From IMG/VR virus record IMGVR_UViG_3300025679_000005: DNA of 64,000 nt; one strand, written 5' to 3'. The DNA is from a virus (taxonomy: Duplodnaviria; Caudoviricetes). The translations under genes and the position numbers were made by a program. The notes beneath the pieces were generated by a model, which did no database searches, was not told the origin of the DNA, and worked only from the letters and a program-made list of their open reading frames with translations. Below are positions 5,984 through 62,005 of this stretch, one piece after another (within the stretch, counting starts at the first letter, position 1; each line of letters begins with the position of its first letter).

Positions 5984-6241
5984 TCAGCAGAACTCCTCGC
6001 CTAGCAAGCGCTCCCACTGAGTGGGACGATGCTCAGAAGCAGGGGATTTGTACTGTTCACTAAATGACTCGATGGCGATTGAGGTAGTTGAACGTGGGTG
6101 CTCACTCACTACCTCTAGGGTTATGAAACGCATGCGCATTGCTTCGATAAGTTCGGTTCCTTGGACTTGCCAGCGCACCCCTGGCGCATCAACATGAACC
6201 CATACAGACCCGATTGCGGGTATCTCGAAGGAGTCAGACAT
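5984..6241 (-). CDS. Hypothetical protein with C-terminal TQWERL tail
   Basis: Ends RPTQWERLLGEEFC. Confidence 0.6.
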   Translation of the reverse strand: MSDSFEIPAIGSVWVHVDAPGVRWQVQGTELIEAMRMRFITLEVVSEHPRSTTSIAIESFSEQYKSPASEHRPTQWERLLGEEFC

Positions 6242-6515
6242 GGCAGACCATCCTCATTGCGACCAGAATATTCTTCATTCGCCGAAATCCTGTGACTTTT
6301 GTGATCAATTTTCCGCCCGTCAGGAGCAACGCATATCCGACGGCGTCAACTTCACGGGTGATAAAGACCCTAACAAGGCACCCTGCCCATCCGAGGCTCT
6401 TCGTCCTACCTACGTTGCTCATCGCTGGGTGGGAAACCAGCCGACGAATATCCCGTTCCAGACTGAAGCAGAGTCTTTCTCAGAACGCCTAGAAGAGATG
6501 AAGAAGCTTCCCTAA
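6240..6515 (+). CDS. Small Cys/His-containing hypothetical protein
   Basis: PHCDQNILHSPKSCDFCD. Confidence 0.55.
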   Translation: MADHPHCDQNILHSPKSCDFCDQFSARQEQRISDGVNFTGDKDPNKAPCPSEALRPTYVAHRWVGNQPTNIPFQTEAESFSERLEEMKKLP

Positions 6516-6537
6516 GCTGGTGTAAGAACAGCCACCA

Positions 6538-7839
6538 ATGCCTCTATACGAGAAAATACGAGACGACCAAGCACACATCGTGGTCATGGGCCTAGGCTAT
6601 GTTGGCCTGCCTTTGGCTATGGAATTCACCAGAGCGGGGTTCACAGTCACTGGCTTAGACCCCGACAAGTCCAAGATCGAGAGTCTGATCAACGGCGAAT
6701 CCTACGTTGACCGGCCTACCTCGGAAACACTCCAGATGCTTACGGATAGGGGCCGTTTCACAGCCACCTGGGACGCTAGTGTCCTAGACCTAGCGGACAT
6801 CGTCATCGTCTGTGTCCCCACCCCATTGAGTAAGACTCGAGACCCGGACCTCTCGATCGTCAACCAAGCCATTGACCAGATTGTCCAGCACCAACACAAG
6901 GATATGCTGGTGATACTGGAGTCGACTTCTTACCCAGGCACGACCCGTGAGCTACTGGTGCCTCACCTAACCCAAGGATACAAGCTGGGGGAAGATGTCT
7001 TCGTAGGGTATTCCCCCGAACGTATCGACCCAGGTAATCCCGTATACCACCTTACGAATACCCCAAAGATCGTCTCTGGGATCACGAAGCTCTGTGCTCA
7101 GTTGACTCAGAGGCTCTACATGAAGATCAATGAGGCCTTGATCCCGGTGTCGAGCCCTGAGGTGGCGGAGATGGCCAAAGTCCTGGAGAATACCTTCCGG
7201 GCAGTAAACATCGGTCTGGCCAACGAAGTCGCCCTCATCAGCAAGAAGCTGGGCATTGATCCCTTCGAGGTCATCGAAGCCGCTGCCTCCAAGCCCTTCG
7301 GCTTTATGCCCTTCTACCCCGGGCCCGGCCTGGGTGGACACTGCATTCCCGTCGACCCCTTGTATCTGTCGTGGAAGCTCCGAACTTTGAACGGCCAAGC
7401 TCGCTTCATTGAATTGGCAGACACCATCAATAGCGGGATGCCAGACTACGTTGTCGGGATCTGCACTGAGGCCCTGAATTCACAGTCGCTGGCGGTTCGA
7501 GGCTCTAGGATTCTACTGCTTGGGGTGGCCTACAAGCCGAACGTGGCGGACATGCGTGAGAGCCCGGTCATCCCCATCATCCAAAAGCTCAAGGCCTTGG
7601 GTGCTAGCGTGTCCTACGAAGACCCCCACGTTCCGGAGTTCTCCGAGCACGGCCTGACTCTGGGCTCTCTCAAACCTATGGACTATGGGGACTTCGACCT
7701 TGTGGTCGTGACCACGCCCCACAAGGAATTTGACCTCAAGCGCCTCATCCAAGAGGCGACATTGATCGTCGATACCCGCGGTGTACTGAGGGACGAGCAC
7801 AACCGTTCCCTGAACAGCCCCAGAATCTTCCGTATCTGA
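6538..7839 (+). CDS. Nucleotide-sugar dehydrogenase (UDP-N-acetylhexosamine 6-dehydrogenase family)
   Basis: GLGYVGLP Rossmann motif, CVPTP, ESTSYPGTT, SPERIDPG, KVLENTFR, catalytic GGHCIPVDP, GVAYKPNVADMRESP. Confidence 0.93.
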   Translation: MPLYEKIRDDQAHIVVMGLGYVGLPLAMEFTRAGFTVTGLDPDKSKIESLINGESYVDRPTSETLQMLTDRGRFTATWDASVLDLADIVIVCVPTPLSKTRDPDLSIVNQAIDQIVQHQHKDMLVILESTSYPGTTRELLVPHLTQGYKLGEDVFVGYSPERIDPGNPVYHLTNTPKIVSGITKLCAQLTQRLYMKINEALIPVSSPEVAEMAKVLENTFRAVNIGLANEVALISKKLGIDPFEVIEAAASKPFGFMPFYPGPGLGGHCIPVDPLYLSWKLRTLNGQARFIELADTINSGMPDYVVGICTEALNSQSLAVRGSRILLLGVAYKPNVADMRESPVIPIIQKLKALGASVSYEDPHVPEFSEHGLTLGSLKPMDYGDFDLVVVTTPHKEFDLKRLIQEATLIVDTRGVLRDEHNRSLNSPRIFRI

Positions 7840-8072
7840 TGCTTCGTTGGAAAGTCACAATCCTGTACAGCCTGGGCTTCTACTCAGGCTGTATGTTCAG
7901 CTTGTTCCGTCGCCACGGAACGTTTCACGGCATGACCCTAGTCTACGGGCTGCTGCTGGGAATCGTGGTCCACCTGGGGGAGCGCCTTCTCAAGGCCCGT
8001 CAACGAGAGCGGGCTCTGACCATCCGTCGGTTCAAACGACGGGTTCGTCTAGGCGATTCCAAGCGGACTTAG
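7839..8072 (+). CDS. Small membrane protein
   Basis: Two hydrophobic segments and a basic tail; overlaps the upstream stop. Confidence 0.45.
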   Translation: MLRWKVTILYSLGFYSGCMFSLFRRHGTFHGMTLVYGLLLGIVVHLGERLLKARQRERALTIRRFKRRVRLGDSKRT

Positions 8073-8286
8073 GCTTGTAGGGGTCTTCCTTGTGAACCCG
8101 TCCACATTCAGGGCACTTCTCGCCGACTTCCATCGGATTGACGTAGCCGCCCACTCTGAAACAGCGGACAGTGCAGGGGATCTCCATCGACAACTGGAAG
8201 CGTTCGGCCTTCGAGAGCTTGTTAGGGTCGATCCCGTTATCCACGCAGTATTTCGCAAGCCATTCCTCGCCCGTGATGTATGCCAT
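8032..8286 (-). CDS. Small zinc-binding hypothetical protein with SAWNRL tail
   Basis: CxxxC and CPEC motifs; ends KPKSAWNRLDEPVV; GGTGTA 9 nt upstream. Confidence 0.65.
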   Translation of the reverse strand: MAYITGEEWLAKYCVDNGIDPNKLSKAERFQLSMEIPCTVRCFRVGGYVNPMEVGEKCPECGRVHKEDPYKPKSAWNRLDEPVV

Positions 8287-60480: not shown

Positions 60481-61014
60481 TCAAGTATGAATGATGTGGA
60501 AGGGCTTACGGACGATGCTGGTGTGGTGCTCAGCCGCTTTGAGGGCTCGCAGGAGCCGCTTCCCCGGGGCATCGACCTTCTTCTGAAGGCTGCTCTCGTA
60601 AAGAGACCCTCTGGCTGGAGGCGCTCCCGTGCCGATCGCGTAGTACTTGTTCCGGACTCGCCAAGGGCAGCCATCCCCTTCGACGGAGTAGAGGTTCCCC
60701 TTGATCCCGATGATGCTTTCGCAGTCAGCGAGGAAGCCGTCCTTGGTTAGCTCCTTGAGCGCCTTCCTCAGGGCATCGGTCAGGTGGGTGCTGACCCATT
60801 GGGTGATGTCAGTCTCTGGCACGTCCCCTATTTTCACCCGCTGCCAGATGGACTCCCACTGAGCATCGCCGCAGCAGCCGACGATGATCTGACCTATGCG
60901 AAAGACCTTGGGATCAGCCTGGAGGTCTATGCTGTCATCGGTATTGTCATTGACAGCACTGTCCCCGCCCATCCAGACCCGACCTGATTCAACGATGGCG
61001 GCAATGCATGTCAT
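60481..61014 (-). CDS. Second Ntn-hydrolase (HslV/proteasome-beta-like) peptidase
   Basis: M-T-C-I-A, MGGDSA, PKVFRIG..IVGCCG, YAIGTG..PARGSL. Confidence 0.75.
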   Translation of the reverse strand: MTCIAAIVESGRVWMGGDSAVNDNTDDSIDLQADPKVFRIGQIIVGCCGDAQWESIWQRVKIGDVPETDITQWVSTHLTDALRKALKELTKDGFLADCESIIGIKGNLYSVEGDGCPWRVRNKYYAIGTGAPPARGSLYESSLQKKVDAPGKRLLRALKAAEHHTSIVRKPFHIIHT

Positions 61015-61079
61015 GGGACCTCCACTTTGGCACGTCACAAGAGCAATAGCATTCCCTGTTTTTCCGGTGTATTAGCCTG

Positions 61080-61550
61080 ATGATGGATAGGCCGACCCGA
61101 AATTGCTACCGAGTCTGCATTCAAGTGGCAGTGGAACTTTTAGAGCCACTGAAAGAATGCTTCGACAAAGACGAGGAAATGGATTTCCTCGATAATCTGG
61201 CCGAGGGTTTAGCCAAGTCTGACGACGCCTTCGAAATTGGTGTGGTCATGCATAATTGTGGCTCCTACATCAGTGAGTTCTTCGTAATCGACCTCGTAAA
61301 GGCCGATGTCTACAAAGTCAGGAAGCGGGTTCACGAGGAGCTGCTCCAATGGTGGCTCTTAACCCAAAAGCCGTGCCATAAGATCGGAGACATCTTCCAA
61401 AAGCCCTTCTTTGGAAGCTACAATCGCTACAATGTACTGACCAATCGCCACGTCGTTCGAGAGATCAACTACCAACAGGGCAAGTACGTGTTCGAAGACA
61501 AGACCCAAGTTGATTGGGAGTTAGCGAATACCTGGACGATGGTGCTCTAA
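61080..61550 (+). CDS. Hypothetical protein
   Basis: GGTGTA 8-11 nt upstream. Confidence 0.6.
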   Translation: MMDRPTRNCYRVCIQVAVELLEPLKECFDKDEEMDFLDNLAEGLAKSDDAFEIGVVMHNCGSYISEFFVIDLVKADVYKVRKRVHEELLQWWLLTQKPCHKIGDIFQKPFFGSYNRYNVLTNRHVVREINYQQGKYVFEDKTQVDWELANTWTMVL

Positions 61551-61663
61551 TAGCCTCTTCCTCACCAAGCGATCCAGAGGAGCGCGGACCAGTTCGACAG
61601 TGTCCGCACAGACATCGAGGACGAGCAATACCCCTAAGAGGCCGAAGCTCAAGGCTAAGGACT

Positions 61664-62005
61664 TCACAGTATTTGGTCCTCCATCAGCCGGTCCCAGACG
61701 GAGCGGCCTTCTTCGAGGATGGTCACTACTGGGGTCGAAGGCAGTTGGAAGCTAGGAGGAGGTGCGTAGGGGTACCATGTATTGGCTGTTGCAAAACCCA
61801 AAGGATCCATCGTCGCATTCCTGCGCTGCAACACCGGCACTAATCGATTCAGACCGCTCCAAACAGCGGTATCCACCGCTGTTTGAGCAGCGTAGGATCC
61901 ATCACTAGCAAGTAGCATCAACCCCGCGGTCAACTGGGTGACGCTATTGGTTAGTTCAGAGACCTGAGCCTCCAGCTCTCGTATGCGCTCGTTTTCGTAG
62001 GCCAT
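61664..62005 (-). CDS. Coiled-coil hypothetical protein with SVWDRL tail
   Basis: Ends GRSVWDRLMEDQIL; GGTGTA 11 nt upstream. Confidence 0.65.
   Translation of the reverse strand: MAYENERIRELEAQVSELTNSVTQLTAGLMLLASDGSYAAQTAVDTAVWSGLNRLVPVLQRRNATMDPLGFATANTWYPYAPPPSFQLPSTPVVTILEEGRSVWDRLMEDQIL

Follow-up and report, generated by a model that had tools for sequence, protein, structure and literature searches.

A shared tail on unrelated phage proteins

The window analysed here, 64,000 nucleotides of the phage record IMGVR_UViG_3300025679_000005 (Duplodnaviria; Caudoviricetes), encodes a set of proteins with unrelated bodies that carry nearly the same short peptide near the C-terminus. It reads [ST]-x-W-[EDN]-R-L, and 3-6 mostly acidic residues separate it from the stop codon. 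This tag is not peculiar to one genome. It belongs to a clade-wide system of huge phages with lineage-specific versions and with modular gain and loss, and it is selected at the peptide level. The tail is probably a portable docking peptide, and a single partner would read it on all carriers. What is new here is that orthologous tails were compared directly between sister lineages; no description of the tag was found in the literature (open-access papers). The window is part of a huge-phage contig of ~465 kb (ENA ERZ27294387 k141_731965), window base 1 being record base 159,773, and the assembled sequence was extended to 101 kb by adding 19.4 kb in front of the window and 18 kb after it. Open reading frames (ORFs) are named, as in an earlier note on this DNA, by their low coordinate, which is the start on the plus strand and the stop on the minus strand.

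A six-frame scan found the motif near the C-terminus of seven ORFs of the window, and all seven tails were present exactly as the earlier note had quoted them, with the Trp 7-10 residues from the end. One further ORF ended with WDIL, and three more with weaker variants. An unbiased scan took the 14 C-terminal residues encoded by each of the 78 called genes and ranked all gapped 3-mers and 4-mers in them by comparison with the protein bodies. W.RL ranked first: it was present in 7/78 tails and just once in the 16,665 residues of the bodies (p=1.2e-11). In the 101 kb there were 13 strict carriers from at least 10 unrelated families. The earlier note had described the N-terminal domains as unrelated except for 49812/50414, and only one other paralogue group, 77394/77770/79931, had to be added. 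Pfam and PHROGs assigned the carriers to no family except for a weak match to the KaiC N-terminal domain. Homologue searches with the carriers 51099 and 49812 retrieved nothing beyond the phage itself and one 72% relative, with no match in IMG/VR or INPHARED. ESM Atlas look-alikes of two carriers were uninformative; 47926 gave a weak HK97-like match (TM 0.45).

The Leu of the motif was encoded by TTG, CTA, CTT, CTG or CTC in the different copies of the window and the Arg by CGC or CGG, and the Glu codons varied as well. Because synonymous codons differ between copies, it is the peptide and not the DNA that is conserved. The codon diversity rules out a repeat at DNA level, as the earlier note had argued, and also gene conversion. 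Near-identity DNA searches among plasmids and phages gave no useful match.

When the 13 copies were aligned on the Trp the core read R(-4) P(-3) [ST](-2) x W [ED] R L. R(-4) and P(-3) were each present in 7/13 copies, S or T at -2 in 12/13, W and R(+2) in 12/13 each, and L(+3) in 13/13. Proline was enriched 3.2-fold in the linker (the 22 residues before the motif), and the 3-11 residues after the motif were acidic and contained no Arg. The distance from the Trp to the end ranged from 7 to 15 residues across the carriers, and the last residue was unconserved (C, V, D, L, E, P and others). A subclass of tails, found on 8032, 23013 and 14398, ended -[DE]-P-[LIV]-[VLI]-stop and tolerated loss of the Trp. 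The tag was C-terminal in 13/16 copies of the 101 kb. An N-terminal copy, MSTLWERL, lay 15.7 kb upstream of the window, and there were internal copies too. With a variable end distance, variable last residues, and copies at an N-terminus and inside proteins, the signal probably does not require a free C-terminus.

The sequence [S/T/N]-x-x-E corresponds to a helix capping box, serine, threonine and asparagine all being N-cap residues of helices, and the hydrophobic residues at 0, +3, +4 and +7/+8 would fall on one face of a helix. Judged from this pattern, the tag may form a short amphipathic helix on a flexible linker. Two other readings of the tail were discarded. A phosphorylation site at the S/T of position -2 was dropped because Asn substitutes there, and a membrane-targeting helix of the MinD/FtsA type was ruled out by the net acidic character of the tails.

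Versions of the tag in related phages

The genomes used for comparison were as follows. A close relative from another sample (72-92% identity) was represented by the pieces L001 and L038 and the orthologue P0002. A syntenic relative (Logan SRR6478736_26741 = Ga0164306_10000002; 50 kb covered) showed 67% identity to the window phage across 34 orthologue pairs, and a third lineage (L113/L044) was identified as Ga0315285_10000152. G001 (IMGVR_UViG_3300028654_000001) is a complete genome of 512,571 bp with terminal repeats and 693 genes, retrieved by an IMG/VR search with a 10-sequence alignment of the AAA ATPase discussed below. G002 is IMGVR_UViG_3300037484_000445 (452 kb), and G003 (= L124) is IMGVR_UViG_3300028029_000006. 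LR745208.1 (485 kb), the nearest relative in INPHARED, was used as a whole-genome control. It had homologues of 24/126 proteins of the 101 kb; with so few shared proteins the carriers look like fast-evolving accessory proteins.

In the close relative the tag was kept on three orthologues (SSWERLTADE, SSWERLVEGIGV and PTSWERLGED) while the linkers had diverged. In the syntenic relative the tag had changed to a W-E-[L/H]-L version, and the Arg was gone from 7/7 orthologous motif copies. These copies read RPTQWEHLL, ETVWALLDSPIV, PTKWELLLEDDQ, NRYQLLDEEIP, RPTIWELLSDSSNL, an N-terminal TTLWEQL and an internal EWDLLL in a DUF488 protein; a further, non-orthologous carrier had NQWELL. The Arg was replaced by L (5), H (1) or Q (1), with the codons CAC, TTG, CTC, CTT, TTG, CAA and TTG. 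As the replacing codons differ, the losses must have been independent events and not gene conversion. In the 34 orthologue pairs Arg was retained at 315/450 positions and changed to Leu at 6/450. Simple arithmetic from this baseline gives p ~2e-4 for 0/7 Arg retained and p ~1e-8 for at least 5/7 changed to Leu.

Tails of the third lineage read KTVWERLP, ETIWERLSTE, DTIWERLDED, PTAWERLNEDEG and TRYDHLLMEDDDA. Their carriers, one of which was a DHHA1 phosphoesterase, had no detectable homology to proteins of the window phage. In G002, nine proteins carried [PT]-x-[LV]-[DE]-R-I-L, and the orthologues of three carriers of the window phage had all (3/3) changed W/Y to L/V and RL to RIL. Single copies of a broader pattern (PTRYERII, PSRFDRIL, LSRFERLV) were seen in a few more lineages.

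The earlier note expected the motif to be enriched at C-termini genome-wide, and this was borne out in the complete genome G001. Here the tag read P-T-R-F-E-R-[IV]-L-x-D-D or P-T-R-F-E-R-E-[DP]-V-I-stop. Back-translated T-R-F-E-R occurred 50 times vs 0 for the reversed control, and the unbiased tail scan found RFER in 34 tails vs 3 body matches (p=1.5e-58). The carriers amounted to 36/693 genes from 30 families, were 72-346 aa long and had the motif 7-14 residues from the end. They were unevenly distributed: 35/36 lay at 0-290 kb, and 0/192 genes at 300-500 kb carried the tag. Pfam gave only a weak Tad2-like match (Thoeris anti-defence) and one RecA-like body among them. The same scan found no match to the tag in LR745208 (485 kb), nor any other enriched tail motif. 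It found 3 stray matches in 815 kb around R2K genes of other phages, and 12, 6 and 5 matches in 101, 50 and 20.7 kb of the clade.

Probable docking through one shared reader

The most telling observation is that the motif shifts at the same position, independently, across the carriers of each lineage. One reader whose specificity differs between lineages is the simplest account of this. The tag would be a short amphipathic helix that starts with the capping box [S/T/N]-x-W-E, is preceded by a Pro-rich flexible linker and followed by acidic residues, and is attached to many unrelated small accessory proteins in a clade of huge phages. The carriers are mostly ORFans, with one weak anti-defence-domain match and two RecA-like bodies. 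One partner would bind the helix of all carriers in a genome, so that the phage could handle them as a group, either bringing them to one place or machine or giving them to one remodelling enzyme. If the binding groove of this partner differed by lineage the carriers would follow, with WERL in the window phage, WELL or WEHL in the syntenic relative, and FER[IV]L and [LV][DE]RIL further out. The helical conformation, the single reader and the identity of that reader are parts of this reading that we infer. In its general form the suggestion of a docking or address tag made in the earlier note thus stands up well, in that the selection is at peptide level, the shifts occur in step and the carriers are non-homologous. 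None of the four specific uses that it listed (virion packaging, delivery to a compartment, binding to a hub, turnover) could be singled out.

The candidate to be considered first for the reader is a 410-aa AAA ATPase of the classical AAA clade, whose gene lies 16-17 kb upstream of the window and is surrounded by three genes that bear the motif. We regard it as a possible reader only tentatively. Its model (pLDDT 91.5, from a 66-sequence alignment) had its best fold matches in Bcs1 and Bacillus subtilis YjoB, and the modelled N-domain comprised two long helices and a beta-rich part. Bcs1 is a translocase of a folded protein. The ATPase also adjoins carriers in the syntenic relative and in G001. 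Full-length homologues were present in the syntenic relative (79%), G001 (47%) and G002 (37%), all of them tag-bearing, and in tag-poor LR745208 there was none. The 79% identity in the syntenic relative compares with the orthologue average of 67%. At four positions (D182N, D229G, D338N and E384G) both Arg-type phages have an acidic residue and the syntenic relative has none, as a change matching the loss of the Arg would require, but three sequences are far too few for a conclusion. Proteins of 342 aa and 259 aa from a conserved OmpA-domain block showed the same co-occurrence with tags as the ATPase, and two J-domain proteins were encoded in the region.

A more ambitious, and rather unlikely, version is that the phages run a protein-addressing system: a label of ~10 residues, open to any accessory gene that a phage newly acquires, is read by this Bcs1/YjoB-like AAA, which then gathers or translocates the proteins that bear it. 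Label and reader would co-evolve into incompatible versions, which could bar co-infecting relatives from each other's cargo.

Several points weigh against a common reader or against the ATPase in that role. Only ~1/5 of the window's own genome was covered, and the co-occurrence is based on five or six related genomes, which are non-independent samples. The switching position (+2) lies off the W/L hydrophobic face in a simple helical wheel. The helix itself is suggested by the sequence pattern, and the single-sequence AlphaFold model of 51099, the one carrier modelled, reached a pLDDT of 36. The AAA family is broad, with 133 representatives at E<1e-30, and a homologue (32%) also occurs in G003, a genome without such a tag. 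Judged from the sequence, the pore-loop position has no aromatic residue. One co-fold of the ATPase with the last 48 residues of a neighbouring carrier returned the verdict 'no answer' (score 0.00), which speaks neither for binding nor against it. Finally, a host protein is no less likely as the reader than any one of the phage candidates, and the versions of the tag would then follow changes of host.

If one partner does read the tag, a single functional group would take in 5-10% of the genes of these phages, almost all of them genes without a known function. The tag also suggests, in a form that can be tested, how the large stock of orphan accessory proteins in huge phages is organised. A 20-residue peptide could be used as receptor bait, as a portable reporter label and as a search pattern for new genomes, and the WERL and WELL versions would provide a natural specificity swap and a covariation signal for the binding site.

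As a separate observation, the syntenic relative encodes, a few kb from the ATPase and tagged genes, a PP2C phosphatase and a protein of 584 aa that faintly matches protein kinases (L041 16582-19406).

Alternative explanations

The tail might be a degron that sends early or accessory proteins to an AAA+ protease or unfoldase of the phage or host, for joint removal at a set stage. Like many bacterial degrons the tail is C-terminal, disordered and placed on a linker. Its carriers are small accessory proteins within the non-structural half of G001, a classical-clade AAA ATPase is encoded among them, and the coordinated shifts support a common reader. However, degrons of the ssrA/MuA type are read at the very end and have a conserved extreme C-terminus with a free carboxylate, whereas here the end distance of 7-15 residues and the last residues vary and copies also occur at the N-terminus and internally. 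The nearby AAA has no protease domain, is Bcs1-like and not Clp- or Lon-like, and lacks the pore-loop aromatic. Timed destruction is therefore unlikely.

The coordinated shifts, which support a shared reader, would also fit a signal for loading into the virion. The tail might dock cargo on a scaffold, the portal or an inner body, so that the cargo enters the head and is injected together with the DNA. Giant phages do package many proteins, and small cargo resembling anti-defence proteins, such as the carrier of G001 with the weak Tad2-like match, would gain from co-injection. Against this, the carriers are encoded far from the head module, and the known capsid targeting sequences of phages (as in T4) are N-terminal and cleaved off, whereas the tag is C-terminal in most copies and has no protease-site pattern attached. 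We consider such a loading signal quite unlikely.

A reader might also be dispensable. If the tails bound each other, or a tagged scaffold, they could gather the carriers in one condensate or factory, and a mutual-binding motif would shift in step across the carriers of a lineage just as a docking motif would. There is a precedent in McdB, where Trp-centred C-terminal motifs drive association with carboxysomes and condensate formation (bioRxiv 10.1101/2023.11.21.568049). But the tails are short and net acidic, with no Arg after the motif, which would give weak homotypic attraction, and the carriers showed no repeats or multivalency and typically have one tag each, which makes this explanation very unlikely.

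The gene neighbourhood raised the question of whether the tail is a substrate handle for the two R2K ATP-grasp ligases of the window, which would recognise it and add amino acids to its acidic end. Additions of this kind are made by RimK to ribosomal protein S6 and by TTL/TTLL enzymes to tubulin tails. Both R2K genes (10106-10855 and 13595-14401) overlap by ATGA with a downstream ORF, 10852 and 14398 respectively, that is tagged or weakly tagged. For the R2K.2 and R2K.3 families a role as peptide ligases that act on proteins in conflicts between phage and host has been predicted (PMC4431377), and the tails are acidic. The linkage is not kept in other lineages, however. The gene that follows R2K in the L113 lineage was not called as a carrier, and the second pair is absent from the syntenic relative. 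In L038 (808-1725), from the 92% relative, an ADP-ribosylglycohydrolase gene separates the R2K gene from the tagged 82-aa gene, an arrangement that recalls the R2K-ARG linkage reportedly described by Burroughs et al. in 2015. R2K homologues are common in tagless phages, among them LR745208 and those of the 815-kb control with its stray matches. Moreover, the terminal residue, which a C-terminal ligase would be expected to need, is unconserved. We regard this explanation as highly improbable.

That the tails share no function at all, through chance, common descent of 3' ends or a translated DNA or RNA element, is hardly credible: the motif is short and there are two paralogue groups among the carriers, but the enrichment (p=1e-11 to 1e-58) came with clean controls, the codons differ, the families are unrelated both here (at least 10) and in G001 (30), and independent mutational paths reached the same lineage version.

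Comparison with known systems

The tag works most like the encapsulation peptides of bacterial microcompartments (BMCs) or the MIM helices on Vps4, yet it differs in some features from each family compared. Encapsulation peptides (PduP, PduD, EutC, CcmN) are terminal amphipathic helices of ~18 residues on poorly conserved flexible linkers; they are portable and bring several unrelated cargo proteins to one reading structure. The linker of the tag is Pro-rich and its W0/L3/(+4)/(+7,8) spacing would suit a helix, the carrier model being unreliable. Unlike encapsulation peptides, which mark a handful of enzymes, the phage pattern is far tighter (R-P-[ST]-x-W-E-R-L), acidic, and present on 5-10% of genes. 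No BMC shell proteins (BMC-H or BMC-P) were among the Pfam matches in the 101 kb. We know of no lineage-wide tag shifts described for encapsulation peptides.

In the MIT-MIM system many ESCRT-III proteins end in an amphipathic MIM1 helix with an R-L core. MIM1, (D/E)xxLxxRLxxL(K/R), docks on the N-terminal domain of the classical-clade AAA ATPase Vps4. Docking of this kind on an AAA N-domain may, by analogy, serve as the working model for the ATPase described above. The tails have only the R-L core in common with the MIM1 consensus; spacing, flanks and the Trp differ. The N-domain of the neighbouring AAA is not the three-helix MIT domain, its fold matching Bcs1/YjoB.

Unrelated proteins also share a docking C-terminus in the clamp-binding tails of T4 (gp43, gp33 and gp55 on gp45) and in the bacterial QL[SD]LF motif that binds the beta-clamp. 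The clients of the clamps, however, are a few replication or transcription proteins of known function, whereas the phage tag is found on dozens of small ORFans. The tails have no Gln-led motif, and the carriers have no replication domains beyond two degenerate RecA-like bodies. PTS1 (SKL-type, read by PEX5) is similar in being a genome-wide C-terminal address on unrelated proteins with a single receptor. It differs in being an extreme C-terminal tripeptide with a free carboxylate, whereas the phage tag varies in end distance and last residues and has non-terminal copies. The C-terminal cargo-loading consensus of encapsulins, which is rich in Gly, Ser and Leu (GSLxIGSL-like), was not present in the tails, and for an encapsulin shell of HK97 fold the Atlas match of 47926 remained the sole hint.

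Carriers of the window

Three carriers are encoded on the minus strand. The first is an 85-aa protein (5984..6241) that ends EHRPTQWERLLGEEFC; its orthologue in the syntenic relative ends RRPTQWEHLLADTKLQTY. An 84-aa zinc-ribbon-like protein (8032..8286) ends YKPKSAWNRLDEPVV, and its orthologues end PETVWALLDSPIV in the syntenic relative and LRDVDRILQDDWPVI in G002. The third, a coiled-coil-like protein of 113 aa (61664..62005), ends EEGRSVWDRLMEDQIL.

The other carriers are on the plus strand. The 82-aa protein downstream of the first R2K gene (10852..11100) ends ETLPTSWERLGED. Its orthologues end LPTSWERLGED in the 92% relative and LPTKWELLLEDDQ in the syntenic relative, and its homologue in G001 is a body of 59 aa without the tail. 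A 201-aa protein (49812..50417) is encoded first in an operon of three tagged genes whose stops and starts overlap. It ends PEPIRISSWERLDGNL and is a distant paralogue of the next one; GGTGTAGGAT precedes it at 49793. The second protein (230 aa, 50414..51106) ends EPEPVRTSSWERLTADD, and its orthologue in L001 has kept the tail (EPLRVSSWERLTADE) while the linker has diverged. The third (196 aa, 51099..51689) is a degenerate RecA/KaiC-like protein without Walker A that ends PTPLKSAWERLVDGIGL. Its 72% orthologue P0002 ends KPLKSSWERLVEGIGV, and G001 has a RecA-like carrier as well.

The weaker variants listed in the earlier note fared differently. A zinc-ribbon protein (140 aa, 23013..23435, plus strand) has the degenerate tail VPKTFGERLDDPLV (GERLDDPLV). 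It is a true member, because the orthologue in the syntenic relative (37% identity) ends LEYRPTIWELLSDSSNL with a full RPTIWELL. The 142-aa protein downstream of the second R2K gene (14398..14826, plus strand), which is absent from the syntenic relative, ends ALVKRLSDPIV and fits a '-RLxDP[LIV]V' subclass without Trp. An acidic protein of 195 aa (47926..48513, plus strand) ends VIRRSQWDILKTEDILKASQE, with Ile at +2 and the Trp 15 residues from the end, and this WDIL tail is a plausible member. The tail of the 228-aa protein 53219 (53219..53905, plus strand) is doubtful. It ends RPALARLIEGIGI (ARLIEGIGI), with Leu at the Trp position, and resembles the tail of 51099. Since the orthologue of the 72% relative (in L001) ends NNEEEGPP without the tail, the tail appears to have been gained or lost recently.

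The DUF488-domain protein (17448..18077, plus strand) has an internal GEWDRLLARERV, which may or may not be a working copy of the motif. Its orthologue in the syntenic relative reads GEWDLLLARERV, the codon having changed from AGG to TTG.

Other features of the window and its relatives

Besides the two R2K genes the window contains TnpB copies, a PcfJ-like gene and a DUF6094 methylase. A CRISPR array of ~5.7 kb (33950-39700) has a 36-nt repeat, CCTCAGAGGCTATTGGCTTCTGAGGTGAATTGAAAC, and a block of variant repeats near 37217-37398. It is followed at 39711-46360 by type I-C genes for Cas5d, Csd1/Cas8c and Cas7 together with a helicase of 792 aa and a protein of 260 aa; no cas1 or cas2 gene was recognised. 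A 1096-aa ORF on the minus strand (2585-5875) with LAGLIDADG and Hint matches is intein-bearing, and its extein resembles a cyanophage DNA repair exonuclease. The orthologue in the syntenic relative has 419-420 aa and matches in three separate pieces at 55-91% identity, from which it follows that the inteins are absent there. The region 6538-10855 encodes a UDP-sugar dehydrogenase, a CoaD-like nucleotidyltransferase, GT2 and GT34-like glycosyltransferases and, last, an R2K ATP-grasp protein; both glycosyltransferases are missing from the syntenic relative.

The sequence GGTGTAnnnT occurs 11 times in the window vs 3.6 expected, and 0/100 shuffles reached 11. The sites include 15722, 22995, 31771, 47611, 49793, 62254 and 63773. 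They often lie 10-20 nt upstream of a start codon, as at 23013 (18 nt upstream), the 49812 operon and the operon containing 61664.

Shared tails of other kinds were seen in several phages. In L037 (JGI 3300009545 Ga0105237_10000004), a phage of 447 kb, seven small proteins from at least three families (1254-19782) end [LI]-K-x-[IL]-K-[AS]-[FY]-[IL]-stop, possibly a different tail tag, and two others end SWSSS[ST]LSC-stop. Four neighbouring proteins of G003 (L124 15888-18228) end P-x-W-[DN]-SSS-x-x-C-stop like this last pair. Across the G003 genome ten proteins share a C-terminal module of ~20 residues, C-x-GKMVEVDGKKYKL[VI]E, and KYKL was found in 11 tails vs 2 body matches (p ~3e-16). In the syntenic relative (L036 11241-12794) and in L123 (12079-13514) a helix-turn-helix protein of the XRE type and its larger neighbour both end [VI]-R-[DET]-G-[NK]-W-stop.

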